Source: a virus. From it: a stretch of DNA of 64,000 nt. The notes under the pieces were generated by a model. The model was not told the DNA's origin and did no database searches. It saw only the letters and a program-made list of their open reading frames with translations. The stretch is from IMG/VR virus record IMGVR_UViG_3300045988_174937. One strand, 5' to 3'. The number at the start of each line of letters is the position of its first letter. The first letter of the stretch is position 1. Shown here piece by piece: positions 7,117-48,994 of the stretch. Made by a program: the position numbers and the translations under genes.

Positions 7117-7148
7117 GTATAAAATTCGATAAATTATCGAAAAAGTCG

Positions 7149-7197
7149 CCAAAATATTTTGTAGATTGGAAAATTCGTATTACCTTTGTAGTGGAAA
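7149..7197 (+). promoter_or_regulatory. conserved promoter cassette P1 (Bacteroidota-type -33/-7)
   Basis: CCAAAATATTTTGTAGATTG is identical in P1-P3. TTTG at 7158-7161, then N19, then TACCTTTG at 7181-7188. ATG at 7198. Confidence 0.7.
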
Positions 7198-7410
7198 ATG
7201 AAACTAAACTCTGTAAAAATGGACAAGAATCGTAAACAACTGGAAGAACGCGCCGCGTGGATGCTGGTTATAATCGTCGTCGTGATAGCTTTCGTTGGCG
7301 TCAACTTGGTGTGGTACGGCGAGGGCTTGACGAAACTGTGCGGACTGCTCGTTATTGGGTATGGCGGGTATGTGATTAACCGGATTATTGAACGCTTAAA
7401 CCGTCGGTAG
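7198..7410 (+). CDS. small membrane protein
   Basis: 70 aa. Two hydrophobic stretches (WMLVIIVVVIAFVGVNLVWY, LCGLLVIGYGGYVI). It is the first gene after P1. Confidence 0.5.
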   Translation: MKLNSVKMDKNRKQLEERAAWMLVIIVVVIAFVGVNLVWYGEGLTKLCGLLVIGYGGYVINRIIERLNRR

Positions 7411-10230: not shown

Positions 10231-10326
10231 ATGGCTTGGAGTGTAGTTTTGGCGTTATTGGCGATGACGATATATTCGCTTGTGTGACGTTTTGAGGATG
10301 TTGGTAAAAAAGTTGAAAAATTTTCT

Positions 10327-10380
10327 CCAAAATATTTTGTAGATTGGAGAAAAGTTACTAATTTTGCTCTTGGAAAAGAA
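10327..10380 (+). promoter_or_regulatory. conserved promoter cassette P2
   Basis: Same 20-mer as P1/P3. TTTG at 10336-10339, then N19, then TAATTTTG at 10359-10366. Downstream box CTCTTGGAAAAGAA at 10367-10380. Confidence 0.7.
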
Positions 10381-10398
10381 AACTAAACACTCAAAATT

Positions 10399-10845
10399 AT
10401 GAAAGCAACTATTGAAACTATCCGCGAAATTGTAAAGGTTCTGACCGCTGACGAACAGCAACTCCTGAAAGACACCTTCCTCTACGGAGGCTGGGGAGAC
10501 ACCGACTACGAGTTCCTTGACGAAAACGGCAAGACCGAAACCGTTGGTGCTTGGGGCTACTGCACGAACGACGCCCGTGAGGGTGGACACTTTGCTGGTC
10601 GTGTCGTGGCTACGATGTTCCGCTCAATCTACAAGAAACTCTGTACCGCTAACCGTAACCAGATTGGCGCTCACCTTTCGCACTGTAACGACTGGTGGGG
10701 TGATGGTAGCGGTGATATGCTGTTCGTGCGCTCGGCGTGGGATAAGGCGTGGATGGAATGGGCCAAGGAGCCCATCCAGCCCGCTGAAGAGCCCAAGAAC
10801 GAGGAGCGCCTGACCGACGCCATCAACGCTTTCCTCGCCAAGTAA
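10399..10845 (+). CDS. hypothetical protein
   Basis: 148 aa. It is the first gene after P2. Confidence 0.55.
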   Translation: MKATIETIREIVKVLTADEQQLLKDTFLYGGWGDTDYEFLDENGKTETVGAWGYCTNDAREGGHFAGRVVATMFRSIYKKLCTANRNQIGAHLSHCNDWWGDGSGDMLFVRSAWDKAWMEWAKEPIQPAEEPKNEERLTDAINAFLAK

Positions 10846-12295: not shown

Positions 12296-13294
12296 ATGGA
12301 AACAAACGTAATTACCACCGTGTTCAACGCCCAGGAGGCGTTACCTATCAACGACGAAGCGCGTATCACCAAGGCCCAGATCCTGTTCCTGTACGCTGCG
12401 GCCAATGCCGCCGCTGACCGCCCGAGTATCATCTGCGTGGACGAGGGTCCGCTGCCTTTCACTGACGTGGCTGAAGCGGCCCCGCGTTACGGCGAAATCC
12501 GTCAATGGCTGGGGACGTTCCTGGACAACAACCTGGTATTTCGGGCGATGATGCCTATCGACGACAACGCCACGGTCGTCAGCGAAATCAAGCGTCTGTC
12601 GCACGAGTGTACCGACGCCGGGCTGTTGGAGTTTTGCGTTGACGACGACACGCTCCGCTTTACAGCGCTTGGCGTCGAGGCCATCGAAAAGTACGGCCCG
12701 GTGCTGGACGAGGAGTGGCGATTAATCGAGCGTACCGTGTTGGAGGTCGTCAACGAACGTTACGGCCACTGCGGCATAGGCGTGGAGAAAATCGCTCGCC
12801 ACGTCCCCACCACCAACCCGCGTGAACTCTACGGCCAATTCGTGTTGGTGGAACAAGACCTGATGTCCGCTGTGTATCGCCGCACCGACGGCGTACTGTT
12901 AGCCAACGTGTTTGGCGTGGGTACGTTCCTGGTAGAGAAACTGATCGCTTTCAACGTACCGCTGCTGGCTACGTTGGCCGATGAGGGTTGGCTCCGTACC
13001 AATCCCGACGGCATCCAGCGAGAGTACCACGCGCGTTTCAAGGCTCAGTCGGAGGCGTACCGCCGTGAGCACGGAATCCAAGACCCCGACGAAGAGGAAC
13101 AACCCGCCGCTGCTACCCACGACAACCCCATGGCGGCGTTGGCTGCGATGTTAGGTCGTGAACTGGGGGCCAAGGTGGGGCTGCGCCGTATCGACGTTCC
13201 TGCTGACGGTGGCGAGCCCCAGGTGACGGACCTGGACGATAAGGTGGCCGACGCCGAAGCGGTGTTGAAAGCCGAGGACAAGCCCGTATCGTAA
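12296..13294 (+). CDS. hypothetical protein
   Basis: 332 aa with an acidic C-terminus. It is the last gene of the P2 block. Confidence 0.55.
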   Translation: METNVITTVFNAQEALPINDEARITKAQILFLYAAANAAADRPSIICVDEGPLPFTDVAEAAPRYGEIRQWLGTFLDNNLVFRAMMPIDDNATVVSEIKRLSHECTDAGLLEFCVDDDTLRFTALGVEAIEKYGPVLDEEWRLIERTVLEVVNERYGHCGIGVEKIARHVPTTNPRELYGQFVLVEQDLMSAVYRRTDGVLLANVFGVGTFLVEKLIAFNVPLLATLADEGWLRTNPDGIQREYHARFKAQSEAYRREHGIQDPDEEEQPAAATHDNPMAALAAMLGRELGAKVGLRRIDVPADGGEPQVTDLDDKVADAEAVLKAEDKPVS

Positions 13295-13319
13295 CGAACC
13301 GCGTTTTCTATCTTCACAG

Positions 13320-13352
13320 AGCCACCCTAAACCCATGGGGTGGCTCATTTTG
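13320..13352 (+). terminator. rho-independent terminator
   Basis: Stem GAGCCACCC (13320-13328) / GGGTGGCTC (13339-13347), then ATTTTG. Confidence 0.7.
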
Positions 13353-13433
13353 TCGTTGTGTGCTGCTGATAATACGTTTTCGGTACACCTGGGTCACCTG
13401 CGAGGCGATACGCAGATGCCATGCCGAAAATCT

Positions 13434-13600
13434 GGTTGAAGATTTTGACTCCTTTGGCGATTTGCGTAAAACTGCTGTTGGAAGATGTTGTAGAAAAACG
13501 ATGTTTTGGCGTTTTATTTGTGCTGTTGGAAGATTTTCACACTCTTGGAAGATTTCCGCGTTATTTTGACGCTCTCCAAGACCTCTGTTGGCGATTTCCC
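13434..13600 (+). repeat. iteron-like array, six copies of TTGG(A/C)(A/G)GAT(T/G)T
   Basis: Copies at 13437, 13455, 13479, 13527, 13546 and 13589. Three are preceded by CTG. The region is non-coding. Confidence 0.6.
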
Positions 13601-13700
13601 CCTATGGTTCTCCCCCTTTCTTCCCCCTGATGGTTTTTCTCCTCCCCCCACCCCTCTACTTTTCCTTTACCCCCTATAATCCCCCTTCTCCTTACCCCCA
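13599..13700 (+). repeat. polypyrimidine tract with nine C4-C6 runs (G-runs on the - strand)
   Basis: C-runs at 13599, 13613, 13624, 13645, 13652, 13671, 13682 and 13696, among others. The ~100 nt contain almost no purines. Confidence 0.8.
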
Positions 13701-13708
13701 ATTTCCGG

Positions 13709-13740
13709 TGTAAAAGAGAAAAAACACTCTCTTTTACACT
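13709..13740. repeat. perfect 12-bp inverted repeat GTGTAAAAGAGA-N8-TCTCTTTTACAC
   Basis: Read directly: arms at 13709-13720 and 13729-13740, loop AAAAACAC. Confidence 0.85.
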
Positions 13741-13762
13741 TTCCAGGCCCTCACGTGCCCCC

Positions 13763-13786
13763 GCGCGCGTGCATGCATACATGCGA
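13763..13786. other. 24-nt perfectly alternating pyrimidine-purine tract (Z-DNA-prone), with CACGTG palindrome at 13753-13758
   Basis: CGCGCGCGTGCATGCATACATGCG, read directly. Confidence 0.8.
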
Positions 13787-13874
13787 GAACGCACATGAAA
13801 ACATCGTCTTTCCAGCACGCCAAAGCACTGCGTCGAACCGCCAACGTTATTGAGTTCGTAAAACCTACCACGAA

Positions 13875-14129
13875 ATGGAACAAGAAGCTAAACAACATCC
13901 CTACATCGGCCATATTGCCCGCAGTATGCAGCGTATGGCTCATGAATACGCCAAACAGATAATCACACGTCAACTCGACGTCAAGAGTATCACCGTCGGT
14001 AGCACCAACGGTTTTGAACTCACGCTGACCGATAAGCGCCAACAGCAAACGGCCAAAGTACAACCAGGAGTCAGGCAACTTCGCCTATTTCCAGACGACG
14101 GTCAAATGGTAAAATCCGTAACACGATGA
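13875..14129 (+). CDS. hypothetical small protein
   Basis: 84 aa, ATG start. It is the first gene after the non-coding hub. Confidence 0.45.
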   Translation: MEQEAKQHPYIGHIARSMQRMAHEYAKQIITRQLDVKSITVGSTNGFELTLTDKRQQQTAKVQPGVRQLRLFPDDGQMVKSVTR

Positions 14130-14707
14130 AACGCCTGATTCGTTGGATAATCAATTGGCTCTACGCCGAAGAAATCGCCGCCTTGGTACAAGAGGCCGTC
14201 GATGACGAATTCGAAGCCACGTGGCCCGAAGCGTTTCGCCATCAGCCGGAACACAATTCGGTAATTCCCCAGGAAATCTGGGCCGCGGTAATACTCAACC
14301 TGCCAAACCACGCCGAAATCATCCACGGCCAGTGGATGGATAATACCAACCACATTCATATCTTGACACGAACGGTAAAACTCGCCAACACTACTTACAT
14401 TCGCGAATTCCAACTCACGATGGACGCCTACCGCCTACGTTTGGACCACGCCCATAGTCGTGACGAGATATTCTGCGGCCGATACGCCCACCTGCTCCAA
14501 GTACAGATACGGCTGCCGGGCAACTACAATTCCCCCAAGGCTGATTACGTGTTGGAATTTTCGCTTATGCAGTACCACCTCGCTGGGCCTGGCGTGGAAG
14601 GAGCAGTTCCGTATTGGCGTTGTAACACAAAACCCGATATTATCCACGCCTTTACCAGCGAGACTTTGGCGGGTATCGAGCGAGGACTAAAACATTTCGA
14701 GAAATGA
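14126..14707 (+). CDS. hypothetical protein
   Basis: 193 aa, ATGA overlap. Confidence 0.5.
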   Translation: MKRLIRWIINWLYAEEIAALVQEAVDDEFEATWPEAFRHQPEHNSVIPQEIWAAVILNLPNHAEIIHGQWMDNTNHIHILTRTVKLANTTYIREFQLTMDAYRLRLDHAHSRDEIFCGRYAHLLQVQIRLPGNYNSPKADYVLEFSLMQYHLAGPGVEGAVPYWRCNTKPDIIHAFTSETLAGIERGLKHFEK

Positions 14708-15547: not shown

Positions 15548-15835
15548 ATGAAAGTGCAAGATTTTTACAGTGCGTTGGCCGCCAAGGCTGACACCACCAA
15601 GGCCCAGGCGATTGCTTTCGTCCGTGCTCTGGAAGAGATTCTCACCGAGGAGGTTCGCGACAAGGGCGAAACCGTCGCCATCGGTAAGGTAGGAAAGTTC
15701 GTCCAAAAGGACCAGCCGTCACGTATGGCGCGTAATCCGCAGACGGGCGTTACGGCCCCCACCGAGCCCTACAAGACCATCCAGTTCCGCCCGGCGTACA
15801 GTTTCCGCGCCTACGGCAAAAAGGCTAAGAAATAG
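15548..15835 (+). CDS. HU/IHF-family DNA-binding protein
   Basis: 95 aa. Typical HU layout, including the arm motif ARNPQTGV and a Lys-rich tail. Confidence 0.85.
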   Translation: MKVQDFYSALAAKADTTKAQAIAFVRALEEILTEEVRDKGETVAIGKVGKFVQKDQPSRMARNPQTGVTAPTEPYKTIQFRPAYSFRAYGKKAKK

Positions 15836-16196: not shown

Positions 16197-16267
16197 TGGC
16201 CTGTGGTGTAATGGTAACACACCAGATTTTGGATCTGGCGTTGGAGGTTCGAATCCTTCCGGGCCGA
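16197..16267 (+). tRNA. tRNA-Gln (anticodon UUG)
   Basis: Hand-folded cloverleaf. Acceptor TGGCCTG/CGGGCCG. D arm GTGT-AATGGTA-ACAC. Anticodon arm CCAGA-TTTTGGA-TCTGG. T arm GGAGG-TTCGAAT-CCTTC. Discriminator A; no encoded CCA. Confidence 0.85.
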
Positions 16268-16487
16268 CTAAACCCCCAATTAAAACCGCGTGTGGCAGAC
16301 GTGGCCCGAAAGTCCATGGGTGAGGGGGTTTTTAAGAAATTTCGTTCGTTAACGTTGTGGCAGTTCGCCCGTGCCGGCAAAGGGAACACCAATAGGAACG
16401 GCAACCGACGAGCGCGGGGCGTGAAATATCGCCCCGACCTTAAAGTCTTAACAGACTTCCATCAATCAAAGGTTTAATTCACCCCCG

Positions 16488-17737: not shown

Positions 17738-17968
17738 GTGAAGATCGTCACCATTTATCGCGATCCTCACGACGGAAAATACAATTTCGACGTTGTGTAT
17801 CGTCTGCCTGACACCGAGGGACTGATTACGATGGAACGGGTGTTGTTACAAGAACTCCACCTCAAACCGGAAGACATTTTCGCCCATCTCCAGCGCACGA
17901 TGGTACGTTTCCGCGGTGAGTTGTTTCCAACTATAAAACGAGAAACCGTAAAACAAAATGGCAGATAA
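17738..17968 (+). CDS. hypothetical protein; reading frame is open and coding-like from 17615 with no start codon before GTG 17738
   Basis: 41 start-less codons upstream (..GKAIRVKGNILPQIGDSRYIITGAEGPIEIIE) look coding. They join the 17278 ORF if one C is removed. Confidence 0.45.
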   Translation: MKIVTIYRDPHDGKYNFDVVYRLPDTEGLITMERVLLQELHLKPEDIFAHLQRTMVRFRGELFPTIKRETVKQNGR

Positions 17969-18434
17969 CGCACGTGTCGCTCAAACGCCCGAAGAGGTAG
18001 AAGCGACAAAACAGTACACCGAAAAGGACGAAAACCGCCAACTGGCCTTTTCCAAAGCACTCGAATTGCTTCGTATTTTGTGTAAAGACGCTTTGGAACG
18101 GGAAATGATAGCCCAGCGCACTTTCACCCGTACAGAGGTTGTAAAGAAAACGACGCTGTCGCACCGTAAAGCGTTGGACCTGTTGGAGACGCTTCAGACG
18201 TTCGGTTACGTCGATATAATGGACGCCAACAAGACAAAATTCTGCTTCACTTTTAACGCCGACGACCGTGCAGCGGTCCATAAGGCCAAGATTATACAGC
18301 TGACTACGTTGCTCGGGGCAGCTATCGAGAGTTACAACTCCGTGCTCTTGAAAGAATACCCCGAAGAGGTGTACCAGCGCGAGACCCTGGAAATGGAACG
18401 TTACCTCGCCCAGGCGTTGAATTTGAAGAGATGA
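17958..18434 (+). CDS. candidate terminase small subunit (by position)
   Basis: 158 aa, immediately upstream of the large terminase. Winged-helix-like TRTEVVKKTTLSHRKALDLLETLQTFGYV. Confidence 0.3.
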   Translation: MADNARVAQTPEEVEATKQYTEKDENRQLAFSKALELLRILCKDALEREMIAQRTFTRTEVVKKTTLSHRKALDLLETLQTFGYVDIMDANKTKFCFTFNADDRAAVHKAKIIQLTTLLGAAIESYNSVLLKEYPEEVYQRETLEMERYLAQALNLKR

Positions 18435-18496: not shown

Positions 18497-20188
18497 ATGG
18501 CTATTATGATACAACCAGCCCTCCCCCATCCTTCATTCGTTGAGCCATCGTATAACCATCGTTTGGCTTGCTTGGAACTTGTAGATGAAATAATACAAGC
18601 CATGGATGAACGCGGTCTCAACGAAATGATGAATGGCGATGTTCGTGATGTAGATGCCGTTTTCGACGCACTTATGCAGGATACCTACCGCGTTCTATAC
18701 ACAGGCGATATGTCTATTGATTTTCGTCCCAGATATGAAGAGAATCTATCAGCGGTCGTTGAAGATACCCTACGATGCGCCAATTTGACGTATTTCATCA
18801 CTTCGGTCATCCCCGATTTTCAACTATCGTGGCACCACCTGGAGTGGGGAGAGTTAGTACAGCAACACAAGAAATTGTGTATCAATGCTGCTCGTGACCA
18901 CGGAAAGTCGTTCTATTTCTCCAACGCCTACGCCGCGTGGCAGTTATATCGCTATACACGCCCGCGCACAAGGAGTTATTCAAAGCGACCCACGGCGGCT
19001 TCGTCTAACCGCGGTTTCTTGTTTTCGTTCTCTTTACAACAGGGAATCGACCTCATGGAGATTTTGAAGGGGACTATCGAGGAGAATGACATTCTGAAGG
19101 AGCGGCTGTTCCCTCAGTCTACGGCCAACAGTTGGTCTGCTACCAACATCGTATGTCGTAATGGAGCGCGGTTGACGGTAAAGGGTTTTGGCTCTTCGGT
19201 GCGTGGTGCTCACCCGTACTGGATTATCGTCGATGACGGCTTGAAGGACAACGTCATCTACTCCAGTCTTCAGCGAAATAAGTCCACCGACTATTTCCAC
19301 TCCGTGATTATGAACATGCTCGTACCCGGCGGCCAGATTATCGTCGTCGGTACGCCGTTCCACGCCGAGGACCTTTACGGCGACCTCAAGACCAAGAACG
19401 GTTGGTTCGTTATCGAGTATCCGGCCATCTTCCCCGACGGGCGAATCCTTTGGCCCCAGCGCTGGTCGTTCAAGGACCTGATGGATAAAAAGGAGACTCA
19501 GGGTTCAATCATCTTCTCGCGTGAGAACCTTTGCCGCCCGATTACCAACGAGTCGTCAATATTCCCGATGGAAATCCTCACGCGTTCGCTACTGCGGATG
19601 GAAAATTACACGTTGGTGGATTCACGCGAAGAATTCCCTGTTAAGTTCTCCAAGGTGGTGGTCGGGTGTGACTTCGCTATTTCAGCCAACGTCGGCGCCG
19701 ACTACGCCGTATTCAGCGTGTGGGGTATCGACGAGTTGACCGACGAACGCTGGTTGTTACACCTCTACCGCGAAAAAGGTGTAAAGTTCTTCGAACAGAT
19801 GAACGTCCTGCGCCGTATCAACTCCCACTTCCGGCCTGACCTTATCGTGATGGAGAATAACACATTCCAACAGATATTCGTTGAGACGGCCGACACCGAG
19901 GGGATGCCCGTTATCGGTCACACTACGGGAATTGATAAGTACGACTTGAAAACCGGGTGGCCACACCTCTCAACGCTATTCGAACGTGGCAAAATCCACA
20001 TTCCAGTGGGCAACGTCTACTCTCAGCAGGTCAAGGACCTCATATTCCAAGACCTCGGTTCCGTTGCCTTTACCGAAAAGGGGCTGGAGAGCGTCGGCAG
20101 TCACGATGATATTTCGTCGTCGTTCTGGTTGGCCGACTTGGCGGCGTCGCGTATGACCACTGGATTTAAGTTCGATTTGTTAGGATAA
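18497..20188 (+). CDS. terL: terminase large subunit
   Basis: 563 aa. Walker A-like ARDHGKSF, Walker B-like YWIIVDD, and a C-terminal RNase H-like nuclease region (VVGCDFA...). Confidence 0.8.
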   Translation: MAIMIQPALPHPSFVEPSYNHRLACLELVDEIIQAMDERGLNEMMNGDVRDVDAVFDALMQDTYRVLYTGDMSIDFRPRYEENLSAVVEDTLRCANLTYFITSVIPDFQLSWHHLEWGELVQQHKKLCINAARDHGKSFYFSNAYAAWQLYRYTRPRTRSYSKRPTAASSNRGFLFSFSLQQGIDLMEILKGTIEENDILKERLFPQSTANSWSATNIVCRNGARLTVKGFGSSVRGAHPYWIIVDDGLKDNVIYSSLQRNKSTDYFHSVIMNMLVPGGQIIVVGTPFHAEDLYGDLKTKNGWFVIEYPAIFPDGRILWPQRWSFKDLMDKKETQGSIIFSRENLCRPITNESSIFPMEILTRSLLRMENYTLVDSREEFPVKFSKVVVGCDFAISANVGADYAVFSVWGIDELTDERWLLHLYREKGVKFFEQMNVLRRINSHFRPDLIVMENNTFQQIFVETADTEGMPVIGHTTGIDKYDLKTGWPHLSTLFERGKIHIPVGNVYSQQVKDLIFQDLGSVAFTEKGLESVGSHDDISSSFWLADLAASRMTTGFKFDLLG

Positions 20189-21346: not shown

Positions 21347-21633
21347 AAGCCGACCTCCGGAAATATACCTCGCTGTTGTTAGCCGCTGTAAAGCGCATCG
21401 AAGCCGAACGCCCAGGAGTCATAGCCTGGGCGTCTCGTCAAGAACGGTGGTGGGAGTTGTGCGTCAGCGATTACGACCTTTACCGCAGTGAGGAATTTGC
21501 GCGCATAAAGAAAACCTATCGCCAGGCGTTGGCTGTTGCGGGCGGTGGTGAGTTGATATTCTGCTACGCTAAACCTGACGCCGAGCGGCTATACGAATTG
21601 GAGTTGAAAGGTAATTTGGTGATGGATTGTTAA
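21343..21633 (+). CDS. hypothetical protein
   Basis: 96 aa, ATGA overlap. Confidence 0.45.
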   Translation: MKADLRKYTSLLLAAVKRIEAERPGVIAWASRQERWWELCVSDYDLYRSEEFARIKKTYRQALAVAGGGELIFCYAKPDAERLYELELKGNLVMDC

Positions 21634-21640
21634 ATTTTCG

Positions 21641-21695
21641 CCAAAATATTTTGTAGATTGTAAAATTCGTATTACCTTTGCTCTTGGAAAAGAAT
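21641..21695 (+). promoter_or_regulatory. conserved promoter cassette P3
   Basis: Same 20-mer. TTTG at 21650-21653, then N19, then TACCTTTG at 21673-21680. CTCTTGGAAAAGAA at 21681-21694. Confidence 0.7.
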
Positions 21696-21712
21696 CGTAA
21701 AACAAAATCGTT

Positions 21713-26123: not shown

Positions 26124-26156
26124 CACCAATTATAGCAAAGCAAATTGGATAATATC

Positions 26157-27926
26157 ATGCTCGGCATAAAAGAAAGACTCGAAATGGTGGACCGCGCTCA
26201 GCAGACATTAGCAGTACGCAAGTCGTTACTGCTGGAAAGTGCTATGCGCAGCGATAATCCGTCCGACATAATCAAAGCCGCCCAAATATTCAACCAGCAA
26301 TCTAAGCCTGGAAATTCGGCTCCGCGGGCGTACTTGATTGACCCCCTGGAGTTCAACTCATTTTTGGGATATAAGGATAAGCCGTTTTCGCTTTCGTACG
26401 AAACGTTGCGCCGGATGAGCCGTACCCCCATCATCAACTCGATTATCAAGACCCGTAAGAACCAGATAGCCGACTTCGCTGAACCGCAGGCCGACCGCTA
26501 TTCGACGGGTTTTGTTATTCGGCGTAAACCCAAGTTCGGCCAGGAGCAGAAGATGGACACGCAGGACCGCAAAATTGCGTCTTCCATCACCGACTTCATC
26601 CTCAACTGTGGTGATACCGCTACATGGGGCGGCGACGAGTTTGACGAGTTCATCCGTAAGATTGTGGACGACTCGCTGACGTTCGACCAGATGACGTTTG
26701 AGTGTATTCGTAACCGCCGCGGCAAACTGGTCCGCTTCCAGGCGGTTGATGCCGCTACGTTCCGTCTGGCGGAATCGTATTTCGACGGCGAGTACAACAA
26801 CCCCTACTTTGAGGGAGCGATGATGGACGACCGCCAGAACTGGGGACCCAAGGTCGATGGCTATTATCCGGCCTACGTCCAGGTGTACCAAACGGCCAAG
26901 GTAGCGCAGTTCTACCCCTGGGAGTTGTGCTTCGGCATCCGCAACCCAACCACGTCGATTTACGCCAATGGGTACGGAAACTCGGAGTTGGAAGAATTAA
27001 TCAACGTCGTAACATCGATGCTTTGGGGCGACGAGTACAACCGCCGCTTCTTCTCGCAGGGTTCGGCCCCGAAAGGTCTTCTGCGTATCAAAGGTAACGT
27101 GAACGAGGCTTCGTTACAGCAGTTCAAGCAGCAGTGGCAAGCCATGATATCGGGCGTTATGCAGTCGTGGAAGACGCCCGTCGTTGAGGGTGATATCGAC
27201 TGGGTTGACCTCCAGAAGAACAACCGCGATATGGAGTACAACTCGTGGATGGAATACCTGATTAAAATCGCCTGTGCGGTGTTCTGTATCGACCCTACAG
27301 AAATCGGCTGGGATATTTCGCGTTCCAACGGAAGCGGCCTAACGTTCGGCGACGGCCAAAAGCAGCGCATGGAGCAGTCGAAGGACAAGGGCCTTTACCC
27401 GATGCTGAAATTCATCCAGCGTAAGGTTAACAAGTTCATCGTCGAGCAAATCAACCCCGACTTCGAATTCGTATTCATGGGCCTCAACGGAATGACCATT
27501 TCTGAGGAGCTGGATATGGACATCAAACGCCTCCAGGCTTTCCAGACCGTGGATGAAATTCGCGAGAAATGGGACCTCCCGGCTATCGGCGAAGAAAAGG
27601 GCGGCGATACTATCGAAAACTCCGTTATTCAGCAAGCCATCAGCGCCAAACAGCAACAACAGCAACAGGCCGCGATGGGCGGTATGGGCATGGGCGGAGG
27701 CAATCCGTTCGAAGAGGCCGCGGGTATGGGTATGGAGGGCGGAGGCCCCGCTGACCAGCCTGTGGCCGGAGGCGACGGCGAAGAAGACGCCGCCGCTCAG
27801 CCGGGAAACCCGTTCGACCTTTACGCCGAGGGTGACCAAGAAGAAACCATGAAGGCACGCGAGTCTAACCCCCTCGTGGCTGCATTCGACGAATACTTAC
27901 AAAAAGCAATACACCATGACGAGTAA
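26157..27926 (+). CDS. portal protein
   Basis: ~590 aa. Track start TTG 26145 trimmed to ATG 26157. The core is portal-like in size and sequence character. The C-terminal tail is poly-Q plus Gly/Met-rich and acidic. Confidence 0.6.
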   Translation: MLGIKERLEMVDRAQQTLAVRKSLLLESAMRSDNPSDIIKAAQIFNQQSKPGNSAPRAYLIDPLEFNSFLGYKDKPFSLSYETLRRMSRTPIINSIIKTRKNQIADFAEPQADRYSTGFVIRRKPKFGQEQKMDTQDRKIASSITDFILNCGDTATWGGDEFDEFIRKIVDDSLTFDQMTFECIRNRRGKLVRFQAVDAATFRLAESYFDGEYNNPYFEGAMMDDRQNWGPKVDGYYPAYVQVYQTAKVAQFYPWELCFGIRNPTTSIYANGYGNSELEELINVVTSMLWGDEYNRRFFSQGSAPKGLLRIKGNVNEASLQQFKQQWQAMISGVMQSWKTPVVEGDIDWVDLQKNNRDMEYNSWMEYLIKIACAVFCIDPTEIGWDISRSNGSGLTFGDGQKQRMEQSKDKGLYPMLKFIQRKVNKFIVEQINPDFEFVFMGLNGMTISEELDMDIKRLQAFQTVDEIREKWDLPAIGEEKGGDTIENSVIQQAISAKQQQQQQAAMGGMGMGGGNPFEEAAGMGMEGGGPADQPVAGGDGEEDAAAQPGNPFDLYAEGDQEETMKARESNPLVAAFDEYLQKAIHHDE

Positions 27927-44029: not shown

Positions 44030-45799
44030 ATGCCTACTTTTATTGACATGTCGAACCTGACGAAGCGTTCGACCCTTACCGGAAACGAGGAGTTTCAGGT
44101 ATCTGCCACCGAAAAGGTGACGTCCCAGCAGATTGCTGACTTAGCAAGTAGTGGACTTAATGTTTATACTGTATCTGAAAGTGAATTTCAGAATCAAAAG
44201 ATAGATGCTTCACGTGTAGAGGAACTTAAAAAGTCTGAATTAGTATTATTTCCTAACGAGGGAAGCTATACACCTTATTTTAAGGTTTCAGTAGATGACA
44301 GTAAAGCATATTTTATAACAGGAAATATACCTATTAATTCACAAGGCCAACCTGGACTTAATAATGGAGAAGAGCCTCCTTTTGAGCAGATTCAAACTGT
44401 GATGGTTGAAGTTGACCTTACTACTTATGATATAACAATACAGCCTTATCCTGTTATAAGTAAGAGTTGGTTTAAGGGAGATGTCTCAGTTATAGAAATT
44501 ACAGACTTTGCCATTCCCTCAGTTAATATTACTAAGGATGGTCAGAGTTTCTTATTCTATGCCAATGATGCCAGCAACATCCCTAATAACAATCATGGAG
44601 CTGCTTCATTTGTAGGTGTAGCCATTGCAAGTTCTATCTTCATAACCGGAGACCAAAGATTGCTGTATTATATGATGGTAGATACAGCAAAGGCTATGTT
44701 TTATACAGGGTATGCAAATCTGGAAGATGATACTGTAACATGGAGTGATACTCCAGTTACTCGCTTAGGACAAGCCGTACAGGTTACTGCCTTTACTGAA
44801 GGCGCATTATCGGCATTGCTTTATAGCTACAAACCGGGTGATTTTATACCGTTTTACACGGGTAACGTTACTGCTTCTACGGCTAATCAATTCCCTGAGT
44901 CAGGCATTTTCAATGGCTTTATCTCCATGGGTAGCAACGAAGGAGATTATTTCCAAATCTTTGCTTTCAAGACAGGTTCTCCCAATGCTTACATTGGAGC
45001 TTGTATTGGTAGTACCACAAGGTGGACCCAGATAGGAGGGGGCTCAAGTAATCTTATTGTCGTAGCAGATGCAGAAAATGTAGGAGAGGTAGTAGCTGCA
45101 TACAAAGGATTTGAGGGTTCGAATAAATATGGAGTATCAGTACCTATCTACATAGAAGCCACGTCCAATATTTATGATGAACTACCAGCTATAATGGATC
45201 AGAGCTTTACAAAAGATGAATCTACTATATGCGGATATGCCCAATATGTCTACGACGGAGGAGATTATTATCACATAGGGTTAAGCCTGCTTATATATCC
45301 ATCAAGTGGAGATCGTCCCAAATATAGAGCGGAGCTTGTTGTAAACAACAGCGGGGAAGTAGTTAGCAGTAGTCTTACCCCTATTGGCAGTGCACATGCT
45401 CCCATCCCGGGATTCACTAAAATTACTTCCTTGGCTGGTCAAACTGACTACTCCCTCACAAAAGGATCTATGGGCGTTATTAACTTTAGCATTGAGGTAA
45501 ATGCGTTGACCACAATGTTTATAGAAGCAGAGGTCCGATCATCTGCTGCTATATCTGCTGATGTCAGATCTGTGTGTATCCCTGTCTCTTTCTTCAATCC
45601 TAAAGAAGGTGCCACACTCATGGATTTGAATACTCGTACTTTAGCTTCTGGAACCAATATTGCTCAAGTTAAGCTAAATGTTGCTTCTGTTGTCACAGGA
45701 GCTAATGGTGTACAGGGATTAAATTGTGTAGTTACTTCGAACAATCTTGCAAATCCCTCTGATATTCTAAGAATAAAGGCTGTATATGCCAATATCTAA
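44030..45799 (+). CDS. fibre / receptor-binding-type protein with compositionally foreign body
   Basis: 589 aa. The N-terminal MSNLTKRSTLTGNEEFQVSATEKVTSQQIADL is a fibre-anchor-like motif. G+C drops sharply from ~44140 to the stop. Confidence 0.5.
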   Translation: MPTFIDMSNLTKRSTLTGNEEFQVSATEKVTSQQIADLASSGLNVYTVSESEFQNQKIDASRVEELKKSELVLFPNEGSYTPYFKVSVDDSKAYFITGNIPINSQGQPGLNNGEEPPFEQIQTVMVEVDLTTYDITIQPYPVISKSWFKGDVSVIEITDFAIPSVNITKDGQSFLFYANDASNIPNNNHGAASFVGVAIASSIFITGDQRLLYYMMVDTAKAMFYTGYANLEDDTVTWSDTPVTRLGQAVQVTAFTEGALSALLYSYKPGDFIPFYTGNVTASTANQFPESGIFNGFISMGSNEGDYFQIFAFKTGSPNAYIGACIGSTTRWTQIGGGSSNLIVVADAENVGEVVAAYKGFEGSNKYGVSVPIYIEATSNIYDELPAIMDQSFTKDESTICGYAQYVYDGGDYYHIGLSLLIYPSSGDRPKYRAELVVNNSGEVVSSSLTPIGSAHAPIPGFTKITSLAGQTDYSLTKGSMGVINFSIEVNALTTMFIEAEVRSSAAISADVRSVCIPVSFFNPKEGATLMDLNTRTLASGTNIAQVKLNVASVVTGANGVQGLNCVVTSNNLANPSDILRIKAVYANI

Positions 45800-45906: not shown

Positions 45907-47466
45907 ATGTTTAAGGACGATAAATTCAATTTCTGGTGTCCCATCGGACGCATCGAGAAGGCCACCGACGAAGCGGGAGAACCCGTTATGCGTATCGGCG
46001 GTATTGCCTCTACTATGGATAAGGACGCCGACGGAGAGTATTTGGACCCCTCGGGGTTTGACGTCGAGCCGCTGAAGAACTCCGGAATGGTCAACTGGCA
46101 CCACCAGGCCAAGAACTCTCCAGCCGCTATCATTGGCGAACCGTCGAAAGTAGAACTGCGACCCGAGGGTCTTTGGATAGAAAGCGACCTTTACGCTTCG
46201 TCCCCTATGGCCAACGAGGTCTATGAATTGGCCAAAACCCTCGAAGAGGACAGTAAGACGCGCCGCCTGGGGTATTCCATCGAGGGAAAGGTTCTGAAGC
46301 GTGGTTCTAACGACAAGAAATCGCCTCTTTACAACAAAATCGTCAAGGCTGTTATTACGGGTGTCGCCGTAACACACATGCCCAAAAACCCGCATACGTT
46401 CGTTAACATCATCAAAGGTCAGGTGGACGCTGACGGTATTGAGGTTGAATTGGAGGAAGAGGACGATAACACCGAAGAGCGTGGTGGTAAAACCGAGAAA
46501 AAGGCTCTGACTACAGAGTCTGGTGCGGCGTTGGTTCCGGAGTCAGTTGATGGCCAGCCGAAGAAAACGTTTTCCAAATCTTCCGTCATGGAAGCTATCT
46601 TCCGCGATATTCCAAATATTACAATACCGAATGCGCACGAAGTGTATACACTAATCAAAAATATATCGGTTATGAACAAACGCAAATCCATCACTTCCGA
46701 GGACATCGAGAAGGCATACGATGCTCTGGGGCTCACGCCCGAGGGTAAGGCTTCCGGTGCTGAAGACGTGCAGAAAGGTGACGACGCCGACGGTCAGATG
46801 GGTAAGGAAGACGAAACCCATGACGACGAACCGCGTCACAATGCCGCCAACATGCGTAACGCTAAGGCTGGCGAGAAGGAGGAATCCGAAGAGGAGACCG
46901 AGGACGATGACGAGGGCTTCGAGCAGTGCGACAAGAACGGCGCCAAGATGAAAAAGGGTGGCAAGATGAAGAAAGGCGGCGATGTCGACCTCCTGAAAGC
47001 CATTCAGGACGTTGGTAACGATTTCAAGTCGTACATCAAAGCCACGGCCGTCTTGGTGAACGATCTTCGCCAGAAACGCGCTGAGGACGCTAAGCGTATC
47101 GCCGAACTGGAGAACATCATCAAGGGCCAGACCGATGTCATCGAGGGCTTCGCTACCAAACTGGAACGCTACGGCAGCGAGGTGCCGCGTCCGAAGTCGC
47201 TGCGCTCGGCTACGGTTATCGACCGTGCGTTTGCTAAGGGCGCCGGCAAGGGTGACATCGAAAAGGGCGGCGATACCGCTCGCATCTCGCTCCGCGAGAA
47301 CCCCCGCGCCGTTGCTTCGTTGCTCGACCAGGCGTCGTTCGCTAAGGGCTACGACAAGGAGTACGGCGATGCACTTTTGGCGTTTGAGGCACGTCCCGGT
47401 GACGGTCTCCCCAAGAACATCATCGCTCGTCTCAAGGCCGAGACCGGGTACGAGGTAGTAGAGTAA
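45907..47466 (+). CDS. prohead protease (HK97/S78-like N-terminal domain) fused to scaffold-like acidic coiled-coil region
   Basis: The N-terminal MRIGGIASTMDKDADGEYLDPSGF...VNWHHQ...IIGEP resembles S78 proteases. The C-terminal half is Glu/Lys-rich. Confidence 0.6.
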   Translation: MFKDDKFNFWCPIGRIEKATDEAGEPVMRIGGIASTMDKDADGEYLDPSGFDVEPLKNSGMVNWHHQAKNSPAAIIGEPSKVELRPEGLWIESDLYASSPMANEVYELAKTLEEDSKTRRLGYSIEGKVLKRGSNDKKSPLYNKIVKAVITGVAVTHMPKNPHTFVNIIKGQVDADGIEVELEEEDDNTEERGGKTEKKALTTESGAALVPESVDGQPKKTFSKSSVMEAIFRDIPNITIPNAHEVYTLIKNISVMNKRKSITSEDIEKAYDALGLTPEGKASGAEDVQKGDDADGQMGKEDETHDDEPRHNAANMRNAKAGEKEESEEETEDDDEGFEQCDKNGAKMKKGGKMKKGGDVDLLKAIQDVGNDFKSYIKATAVLVNDLRQKRAEDAKRIAELENIIKGQTDVIEGFATKLERYGSEVPRPKSLRSATVIDRAFAKGAGKGDIEKGGDTARISLRENPRAVASLLDQASFAKGYDKEYGDALLAFEARPGDGLPKNIIARLKAETGYEVVE

Positions 47467-47506: not shown

Positions 47507-48994
47507 ATGGACAGACTTTCTATCAATCTCGCCGACTATGGCATCCAAGCGCGTGGTGCTCAGTACGGCTCGTCCAGCCAGGAAGAGGTCGCTATGCTGA
47601 ACAAAGCCCTCGAAGCAACCGACATCACGGGTCGTCAGACGACGAACCTTACCGATGCCTCGGGTGCTCCGCTGAAGGTGGAGTCGCTGGAGCGTACTCT
47701 GAAACACCTGACGTTCCGCGAGAGCGACATCGTTCTCTGGAAGAACCTGCCGAAAAAGGCCGCCTACAACACCGTTGAGGAGTACAACCAGCTGGCATCG
47801 TATGGTGCTGACCGCGGTGGCTTCACCAACGAGGGCGAACTCCCCGACGAGGAGGACTCGATCTACATCCGCCGGGCTCAGCTGGTGAAATACCTCGGCG
47901 TCACCAAGTCGGTTACGCACCAGATGACCCTCGTCAACACGATGGTGGGCAACATCATGGAGCGCACCATCAAGGACGGTACGCTGTGGATTCTCCGCAA
48001 GCTGAACAAGTCGCTGTATTTCGGCAACTCGGACATCATCCCGCAGGAGTTCAACGGTCTTCTGGCTCAGCAGTTGCAGTCGGACGCATGGAGTGGCCTC
48101 GACGCCTACCTCAACTCCGAAAACGTTATCGACCTGCGCGGTCGTGGCCTGACCGAGGACCCCATCGAGACCGCCGCCAACTCGATTGTCGAGAACTACG
48201 GCCTCGGCACGGAGCTGTACGCTCCCCCTGCCGTGCTGTCGGACTTCGTCAAAACGTTCTACGGCAACAAGTTCATCCAGCCCAACACCGCCCAGACCAG
48301 CGCCGGTATCATGGGTCAGCGCGTTCAGGCGTTCGACTCGCAGTTCGGCCGCATCGGCCTCAACTACGACGTCTTCTTCAAGAAGGCACCGTTCAAGATG
48401 GCTGGCGCTCAGTCCACGCATCCCAAGTCGCCCGCCGCTCCCGTATGGGACCCTGCTGCTGCGGCTACGGTTGTGGCTGACACGACGACCTCGAAATTCA
48501 ACTCGGAGGATGCCGGCAACTACGTTTACGCCATCGCGGCTATCAACCGCCACGGCGAGTCGTCGCTGGTAGTCAACGAGACCCCGGTTGCCGTAACGGC
48601 AGGCTCGGCCGTCGACCTCAAGTTCTCGATTACCGACAACGCTCACCCGGCTACGGGCTATCGCATTTACCGCACGAAGAAAGGCGGTACCAAGGACAGC
48701 AAGTTCTACCCGATTTTCGACATCTCGGTGGCTGAGCTGAAACTTGGCTATGCAGGCGCTGCCGGCGACCTGTGCCGTGACAACAACTATTTCCTGCCCG
48801 ACTGCGACCAGGCGTTCCTGGTACAGTTCGACAACGAGGTCATCGAGTTCGCTCAGCTGGCCCCGCTGATGAAGATGGACCTGGCGATTCTGTCGCCCGC
48901 GTACCGCTTCATGGTGCTGCTGTACGGTACGCCGTTCCTGTACGCTCCGAAGAAGATGGTTCGCCTCATCAACATCGGCCGCGCTTCCAACTAA
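47507..48994 (+). CDS. major capsid protein
   Basis: 495 aa. It lies directly after the protease-scaffold gene and is followed by a strong terminator. The call rests on position and size. Confidence 0.6.
   Translation: MDRLSINLADYGIQARGAQYGSSSQEEVAMLNKALEATDITGRQTTNLTDASGAPLKVESLERTLKHLTFRESDIVLWKNLPKKAAYNTVEEYNQLASYGADRGGFTNEGELPDEEDSIYIRRAQLVKYLGVTKSVTHQMTLVNTMVGNIMERTIKDGTLWILRKLNKSLYFGNSDIIPQEFNGLLAQQLQSDAWSGLDAYLNSENVIDLRGRGLTEDPIETAANSIVENYGLGTELYAPPAVLSDFVKTFYGNKFIQPNTAQTSAGIMGQRVQAFDSQFGRIGLNYDVFFKKAPFKMAGAQSTHPKSPAAPVWDPAAAATVVADTTTSKFNSEDAGNYVYAIAAINRHGESSLVVNETPVAVTAGSAVDLKFSITDNAHPATGYRIYRTKKGGTKDSKFYPIFDISVAELKLGYAGAAGDLCRDNNYFLPDCDQAFLVQFDNEVIEFAQLAPLMKMDLAILSPAYRFMVLLYGTPFLYAPKKMVRLINIGRASN

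Follow-up and report, generated by a model that had tools for sequence, protein, structure and literature searches.

What is the function of the longest gene-free stretch outside the tRNA locus in the window, i.e., the whole 64,000-nt stretch of viral DNA analyzed here (IMG/VR record IMGVR_UViG_3300045988_174937)? This stretch (13295–13874, hereafter the hub) was singled out in an earlier note as the site of an iteron-like repeat array and as a candidate replication origin or landing pad for a regulator. Its rank in size and the array were confirmed, although the most informative parts of the hub, a tract of cytosine runs and a hairpin, had been overlooked. On balance, the comparative evidence described below suggests that the hub is probably a replication origin of a phage of ~98 kb. 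Such an origin would most likely be modular, combining repeats that confer specificity, a constant C-run module and a recognized hairpin, and its type would be partly undescribed.

Anatomy of the hub and its setting

All long ORFs of the window lie on the + strand, and the recognizable genes are those of the large terminase, the portal, a prohead protease and the major capsid protein (Table 1). The capsid and terminase proteins share 37–49% identity with those of Bacteroides phages DAC19-23 and are more distantly related to those of SPO1/Herelleviridae-type myoviruses. The relatives of the window phage are Bacteroidota-type phages with SPO1-like myovirus kinship, many of which are represented by contigs of 97–100 kb in IMG/VR and in Logan/ENA assemblies, and nucleotide searches of GenBank phages in near and distant mode returned no match for the hub, its flanks or the window. 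A crAss-like identity, suggested by the contig size of ~100 kb, was rejected because the capsid and terminase are SPO1/Herelleviridae-like and of the Bacteroides DAC19 type.

Some features of these phages lie apart from the hub. The window encodes an HU/IHF-like DNA-binding protein, and relatives L157–L159 carry its counterpart (PF00216) as well as a TAGT (PF20691) gene and a dUTPase/dCTP-deaminase-like gene beside terL; together with the SPO1-like capsid, these genes give hints that, as SPO1 does, these phages have modified bases and a TF1-like protein. In some relatives, terL encodes 904–906 aa that include Hint/homing-endonuclease domains, i.e., an intein (9740–12454 in L158 and 16222–18942 in L159), which the 563-aa large terminase of the window lacks. 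The GC content between 43000 and 46000 is 0.41–0.44, against a window mean of ~0.52, and this region covers a 589-aa gene that may be recently acquired or fast-evolving, e.g., a receptor-binding protein. Finally, a single tRNA gene is located 2.3 kb downstream of the hub, in the other large gene-free stretch.

Table 1. Positions of the hub, its elements and other features of the 64-kb window.
Feature	Position	Strand	Remarks
332-aa gene	12296–13294	+	directly upstream of the hub; weak candidate DNA-binding partner of the array
Hub	13295–13874		gene-free
Intrinsic terminator	13319–13352	+	stem GAGCCACCC/GGGTGGCTC, then T run; closes the upstream operon
Iteron-like array	13436–13597	+	seven TTGG(C/AA)GAT(T/G)T units; sequence inspection and motif counts
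C-run module	13598–13699	+	eight C4–6 runs; abuts the array
Hairpin	13708–13739	+	12-bp stem GTGTAAAAGAGA/TCTCTTTTACAC, 8-nt loop AAAAACAC
GC-rich alternating purine/pyrimidine stretch	13752–13797	+	small palindromes CACGTG, CGCGCGCG, TGCATGCA and GCATG-CATA-CATGC
84-aa gene	13875–14129	+	first gene of the operon starting after the hub
HU/IHF-like protein gene	15548–15835		phrog_379
tRNA-Gln	16197–16268		anticodon TTG
158-aa ORF	17958–18434		just before terL
Large terminase gene (terL)	18497–20188
Portal gene	26145–27926
589-aa gene	44030–45799		in the region of low GC content
Major capsid protein gene	47507–48994
Three promoters	7133–7215, 10311–10400, 21625–21712		near-identical, ~70 nt each

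Pfam and PHROG searches with all genes flanking the hub returned no match except for an HU-like protein (15548–15835) and an exonuclease; in relatives, the genes downstream of the hub include those of an HU-like protein (PF00216) and an RNase_T-type exonuclease. None of the flanking genes was recognizable in these searches as an initiator, a helicase or a loader. The 332-aa protein encoded directly upstream belongs to a family confined to these phages and matched nothing in Pfam, PHROG or a profile search of PDB sequences. Its AlphaFold model (mean pLDDT of 58) is confident only for residues 10–150, which form a helix-helix-helix-wing arrangement, and its Foldseek list is composed mostly of winged-helix proteins (MukE/F, MarR, IclR, RTP, TubR and Cdc6), every one of them with E > 0.2. 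Judged by this winged-helix-like model, the protein is a weak candidate for binding the array.

The terminator reported upstream of the array was recovered by a terminator scan (13319–13346 plus the T run), and relatives carry a different hairpin at this position. The array itself comprises seven units in 162 bp, all on the + strand, which start at 13436 (TTGAAGATTT), 13454 and 13588 (TTGGCGATTT), 13478 (TTGGAAGATGT), 13506 (TTGGCGTTTT), and 13526 and 13545 (TTGGAAGATTT). The six copies described earlier and the CTG prefix on three of them (at 13475, 13523 and 13585) held, whereas the copy at 13506 had been missed and all coordinates were one base too high. A similar density of the motif was not seen elsewhere in the 64 kb: the earlier consensus, searched as a regular expression, matches six times within 13436–13597 and three times outside the array, always on the − strand, and 200 Markov shuffles never gave more than one match per 170-bp window. 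Moreover, TTGGAAGAT occurs three times in the 64 kb, every time inside the array, against 0.46 occurrences expected. The array is thus a unique cluster of short repeats in the same orientation, as expected of an iteron origin, for which three repeats would suffice. Tandem Repeats Finder detects only the 11-nt period of the C runs and not the array. A 69-aa ORF (13421–13630) that overlaps the array was rejected as coding, since it is not conserved and the gaps in the closest homologous array, that of relative L011, are not multiples of three.

The last copy of the array, TTGGCGATTT, extends to 13597 and directly abuts the C-run tract, which begins with its first run at 13598. The C-run tract contains the blocks CCCCCTTTCTTCCCCC (13612–13627) and CCCCCTATAATCCCCC (13670–13685), the latter being unique in the window, and the module as a whole is single-copy in the 64 kb. 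This tract reaches 86% pyrimidine, a value that lies ~8 sd above the mean and is the highest of any 100-nt segment in the window, and has a GC content of 0.55 and a GC skew of −0.8, the hexamers TATAAT and TTTCTT being its only AT-rich parts. Neither DnaA boxes nor a classical AT-rich unwinding element are found in the hub, where the tract adjacent to the array is 55% GC and C-rich.

Every relative keeps three to seven same-strand TTGG(C/A)(G/A) units, the C-run tract and the hairpin, a conservation that reaches relatives with 60% identity of the 332-aa protein, and the repeat copy abutting the C-run tract is always retained. Close relatives with 96–100% identical flanking genes have only three repeats and, thus, most of the array is dispensable or variable, yet it is never lost completely. 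The stem of the hairpin occurs in seven variants within the family, at least four positions of which show compensatory changes on both sides, and its loop, AAA(A/G)ACAC, is invariant. A stem that covaries around an unchanging loop is what a stem-loop recognized by a protein in a single strand typically displays. In addition, relatives possess GC-rich tetraloop hairpins analogous to the alternating purine/pyrimidine stretch of the window.

The C-run module in unrelated phages

The C-run tract is not restricted to the window family. A module class was defined as C5–6 TT(T/G)(C/T)TT C5–7 followed within 15–45 nt by C5–7 TATAAT C5–7, with five to eight C runs in total, and the tract of the window belongs to this class with its two blocks and eight runs. 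The fuller order of the module is C5–6, TT(T/G)(C/T)TT, C5–7, a T-rich spacer, C4–6, ACA/TACAA/TGAAA, C4–6, a TA-rich spacer, C5–7, TATAAT and C5–7, and the commonest spacing between the C runs is 11 nt. A scan of IMG/VR for CCCCTATAATCCCC returned at least 120 loci, many of them unrelated to the window phage and with the same C-run arrangement, and the stricter two-block pattern also returned at least 120 loci, those listed representing 15 families. The arrangement is common to at least 18–20 unrelated phage families from several bacterial phyla, and the order of the blocks is preserved throughout, across phyla and over carrier GC contents of 0.34–0.61. The two-block pattern also occurs in three bacterial MAGs, assigned to Ruminiclostridium, Oscillibacter and Alloprevotella. 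No contig appeared twice in the scan, neither among the relatives of the window phage nor among the other carriers, i.e., the module is single per contig. Moreover, it is found often among phage records and hardly at all in 7.3 Gb of plasmid sequence. A 70-nt query of the module gave no match among GenBank phages, for which low-complexity masking is a possible reason. The window shares further features of the class, namely family-specific repeats directly before the first C run, a C-rich strand that is the coding strand of the neighbouring genes, and a single copy.

In 50 of the 123 loci analysed, the motif is covered by an ORF (at least 100 aa) of the C-rich strand and is translated as PYNP(P) (34 loci) or as P(P)IIP (16 loci), the third frame yielding a stop codon. 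A further 63 loci have no spanning ORF, among them those of the window family and of the L108 type, which is abundant. Since the same 14–16 nt are conserved in two frames and in non-coding DNA, selection acts on the DNA. The 41 dereplicated spanning ORFs are mainly assigned by PHROG to replication initiation proteins, replisome organizers, DnaD-like helicase loaders and primosomal proteins and, in general, the module is usually located within or beside genes for replication initiators, organizers, DnaB or DnaC. For example, an O-like initiator and a DnaB-like helicase are encoded directly upstream of the module in L086 and L108, while a DnaC-like loader is encoded directly downstream in L106 and L154, the latter module lying in a typical prophage set composed of SSB, organizer, DnaC and RusA. 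In L054, L106, L154, L225, L081 and L112, the module is inside the linker-coding part of the organizer gene. Among GenBank records, the motif is present in the lambda-O homologues of Gifsy-1, Gifsy-2, SPN3UB and FSL SP-016, and that of Gifsy-1 contains six lambda-type iterons, then a purine-rich AT stretch and then ACCCCCTTTAATCCCCC.

Family-specific short repeats are found directly upstream of the module in ~17 of the 29 family representatives, according to a crude count of exact 7-mers in which these 17 fall in the top 10% of their own background; for nine of the 29, the repetition exceeds that of every background window, and ~40% of the families have no clear repeats at this position. The repeats include ATGTCACGC (at least four copies) and CGTGACA (six copies) in L122, GTTACAGTAAC in L106, TTCCGCAGA (three copies) in L131 and L143, TCCACGGAA (five copies) in L154, TTCTGAA (at least seven copies) in L261, CGTAACGTTAC in L225, and AAGCAAA (at least 12 copies) in L156. 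Several families also have purine-rich AGAAAAGAGAA tracts next to the module, and GGGCGCGCGCG-type boxes are often found downstream of it in other families.

Several individual occurrences deserve a separate mention. Firstly, the L156 locus is located in the Alloprevotella MAG (JBHAFF010000026.1, ~2560–2810 in the C-rich orientation), where the direct AAGCAAA repeats recur every ~11 nt and adjoin a complete C-run module. Its neighbours on this 183-kb contig look like ordinary host genes, one ORF being esterase-like and the other resembling a THUMP-type RNA methyltransferase; this element could be an orphan origin or the remnant of an integrated element. Secondly, L086 and L108 represent an abundant group of 55–59 kb phages in which the module follows the DnaB gene. 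In these phages, many copies of (A)CGACTAT(T/C) are scattered through a largely ORF-free region of ~1 kb (3500–4260 in L086 and 5430–6480 in L108), and a second conserved block, GGTTCTTTCCCCCTACAACCCTCTATCTCC...GCCAGCAGAGCAGACCGTA, is located downstream. Thirdly, exact 18–20 nt matches to (TT)ACCCCCTATAATCCCCCT are found in unannotated, apparently non-coding DNA of two Microviridae (MZ089768.1, 2269–2287, and PP511881.1, 4111–4133), in the mycobacteriophage Arissanae (MK468591.1, 207–224), ~200 bp from its left end, and, antisense to a gene, in phiKMV-like podoviruses (Pectobacterium Peat1-like). The matches in microviruses would fit a priming signal.

Promoters, terminase genes and mosaicism

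The position of the hub, after a terminator and before a long operon without a host-type promoter, is also what would be expected of a transcription control region. In such a region, the repeats would be operators, CCCCCTATAATCCCCC would provide a −10-like promoter for a phage-directed form of RNA polymerase, and the hairpins would belong to a structured leader or a nut-like antitermination element of the operon starting at 13875. Two features of the hub agree with this possibility: TATAAT is the universal sigma-70 −10 hexamer, and the hairpin, with its covarying stem and invariant loop, resembles RNA hairpins bound by proteins. Nevertheless, scans for sigma-70 and Bacteroidota promoters revealed no convincing promoter in the hub, an Rfam 15 covariance search of 12800–14400 gave no match even at E up to 10, and, to our knowledge, TATAAT is not used by the primary sigma factors of Bacteroidota. 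The module is also unique in the window, which argues against a promoter class, and its presence inside initiator coding sequences of dozens of unrelated phages from several phyla is not explained by a promoter for a downstream operon. A control region is thus an unlikely account of the hub.

The promoters that are recognizable in the window are of a different kind. Strongly conserved Bacteroidota-type promoters (TTTG, 19 nt, TAnnTTTG) are located at 7158, 10336 and 21650, which are the only TTTG/TAnnTTTG pairs with a spacing of 17–23 nt on the + strand; a further pair is found on the − strand at 46656 and none in the hub. They are part of three near-identical sequences (AAAATATTTTGTAGATTG, 19 nt, TAnnTTTG), each with a purine-rich start box, (C/T)T(C/A)(T/G)TGGAAAA(G/T)GAAA, behind it, and seem to represent a single class of phage promoters of Bacteroidota type; the second of them, P2, is conserved in L159, a relative at 61% protein identity. 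The earlier note had proposed that a single protein could read both the array and two of these promoters, P2 and P3. Indeed, array copy E has the 9-mer CTCTTGGAA in common with the start-site boxes at 10367 and 21681, a point in favour of transcription control. However, promoter P1 reads TAGTGGAAAATG instead and the 9-mer is not conserved in the arrays of relatives either, so that the link between the array and P2/P3 through a shared protein, proposed from this one 9-mer, is weak.

The surroundings of the module in other phages raise a second alternative, according to which the hub would be a packaging recognition site (pac/cos or the boundary of a terminal repeat), with repeats that bind the small terminase subunit and a C tract near the cut. 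In at least five families (L203, L063/L150, L068/L117, L155/L210 and L249), the module is immediately upstream of terS–terL, at a distance of 100–450 bp, and this arrangement of repeats and a conserved element recalls cosB/pac sites, where repeats upstream of terS bind the small terminase subunit. The Flavonifractor phage Chenonceau, a cultured member of the L068/L117 family, has its sole copy between an anti-repressor gene and terS, 7 kb away from its replication module, and FP_Toutatis has the module in a divergent region ~840 bp from terS. The position of the motif near the left end of Arissanae and the short metagenomic contigs that end 8–170 nt from the module in L206, L221, L122 and L210 agree with packaging as well. 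Contigs of L047 (IMG/VR) end in the same range, and contig ends at the module may reflect real DNA ends, though they are equally expected as artefacts of assemblies that stop at a C-run repeat which co-occurring phages have in common. In contrast to cosB/pac sites, the hub of the window is away from the terminase genes, 4.6 kb, ~10 genes and a tRNA upstream of terL, and neither immediately upstream of terS nor inside it, the 158-aa ORF just before terL being a terS candidate by position only, with no PHROG match. Moreover, contig breaks in the window family are scattered and do not fall at the hub, and most families carry the module inside replication genes. Packaging is accordingly a rather improbable function for the hub.

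A third alternative arises from the mosaic composition of the hub. Its first 167 nt are 98–99% identical to L001-type relatives, while the rest is closest to L011 (90%), a relative whose flanking genes are only 81–88% identical, and five relatives with 96–100% identical flanks (L003, L004, L006, L013 and L015) have a hub that is ~190 nt shorter. Together with the location of the module at domain or module junctions in other phages, this mosaicism would suit a recombination linker or a mobile regulatory cassette that marks module boundaries, comparable to the promoter–stem-loop cassettes of T4-type phages, with adjoining repeats devoid of a function of their own. Nevertheless, the mosaic breakpoints are not at the module itself, and a linker leaves unexplained both the iterons of independent families and the maintenance of the C-run block order across phyla at GC contents of 34–61%, making this explanation very improbable.

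A candidate modular origin

A replication origin at the hub is supported, firstly, by the array as a unique same-strand cluster and by its abutting a module that is single in the 64 kb and in each relative contig. Secondly, the ORFs that span the module elsewhere are mainly replication genes, genes of this kind also lie beside it in several phages, family-specific repeats precede it in ~17 of 29 representatives, and it is frequent in phages and nearly absent from plasmids. Thirdly, Gifsy-1 and the annotated lambda ori have the same order of iterons followed by a purine-rich tract. From the observations themselves, namely the structure of the hub, what relatives keep of it and the replication genes that accompany the module elsewhere, we infer that a protein binds at the hub, that the strands are unwound there and that replication begins. 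The origin is made less certain by the lack of an AT-rich unwinding element and a DnaA box in the hub, by flanking genes that include no recognizable initiator, helicase or loader, by the families with the module upstream of terS and outside the replication module, by the ~40% of families without clear upstream repeats and by the close relatives with three repeats. The origin switch in GC skew that the earlier note proposed to look for is also missing, as the skew has the same value, +0.019, to the left and to the right of the hub and dips only over the C tract and the next 1 kb, a test with little power here because all genes are on one strand. Thus, the proposed origin gained strong comparative support from the C-run module, while a skew switch is lacking and the packaging context remains as a rival.

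Origins with iterons inside or close to an initiator gene have long been known, and the closest parallels to the hub are the lambda ori in gene O and the Gifsy-1 ori, where repeats in the same orientation also precede a strand-asymmetric tract and both elements lie in or next to the initiator gene, as the module does in other phages. Gifsy-1 even carries ACCCCCTTTAATCCCCC right after its purine-rich tract, whereas the annotated lambda ori has no C5 motif. Unlike in lambda, the tract of the hub is C-rich and not AT-rich, the hub is intergenic with no recognizable O-like gene beside it, and its repeats are 10–11 bp long without dyad symmetry, whereas lambda iterons are 18-bp palindromic sequences. 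Temperate phages of Firmicutes have origins inside genes for replisome organizers or DnaD-like proteins (SPP1 oriL in gene 38, TP901-1 and Tuc2009 type), with direct repeats in the linker-coding part, the very position of the module in the six organizer genes mentioned above. We know of no C5-TTTCTT-C5 ... C5-TATAAT-C5 module in such origins and, in contrast to these temperate phages, the window phage is a large virulent-type myovirus with a Bacteroidota-like host and no recognizable organizer gene. G-rich elements are also known from origins, e.g., OGRE/G4 at metazoan origins and the R-loop primers of mitochondrial CSB II and ColE1. They share with the module a strong G/C strand asymmetry and phased G runs by the presumed start site, a likeness that is pure analogy, and no leftward promoter that would produce a G-rich RNA was found at the hub.

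In the mechanism that we propose for an origin at the hub, the TTGG(C/AA)GATTT repeats would be iterons for a phage-encoded initiator, of which the 332-aa winged-helix-like protein is one candidate. The C-run module would take the role that the purine-rich AT tract plays in lambda ori, namely strand opening and the recruitment of the helicase and/or the primase. Speculatively, its G-rich bottom strand might fold into G-quadruplexes and keep the bubble open; the loops between G runs are 5–16 nt long in the window, while L108-type phages, with loops of 5–6 nt, fit the canonical G4 pattern. An alternative, equally speculative, is that the recurrent C runs followed by TA or TG serve as primase start sites yielding unusually stable rG:dC primers. 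Bacterial DnaG primases start at the trinucleotides CTA and CTG, which the module resembles in its C runs followed by TA or TG, and starts at such sites would give rG-rich primers. In turn, the downstream hairpin with the invariant loop would be a stem-loop recognized by a protein, either in single-stranded DNA or in an origin transcript.

More generally, it can be put forward as a tentative idea that C5-TTTCTT-C5 ... C5-TATAAT-C5 is an undescribed cis-element of phage origins across phyla, a constant "engine" combined with interchangeable, initiator-specific iterons. It would act through DNA structure or priming (G-quadruplex/i-motif or rG:dC starts by primase) instead of AT-rich melting, and might be reused near terS to couple late replication to packaging. 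A literature search by sequence strings and keywords found no description of a C-run module of this form, and we are aware of none that is shared across phyla in place of an AT-rich element. Thus, the presence of a C-run module where an AT-rich element is expected appears to be new, although the principle of iteron origins is already known.

For the window phage, these results provide a concrete locus of ~400 bp for origin activity, and an origin at the hub would also explain why it is a hotspot of mosaicism among near-identical genomes. Replication origins have been located in hardly any uncultured phage, and the gut phages described here, which are abundant and have Bacteroidota or Oscillospiraceae-type hosts, are no exception. 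If the proposal is true, the module would mark the origins of uncultured phages by sequence alone, initiators could be matched to the sites that they bind, and shuttle or suicide-rescue vectors could be designed for genetically difficult hosts. Moreover, it raises the mechanistic question of how a C-run tract can replace an AT-rich unwinding element.
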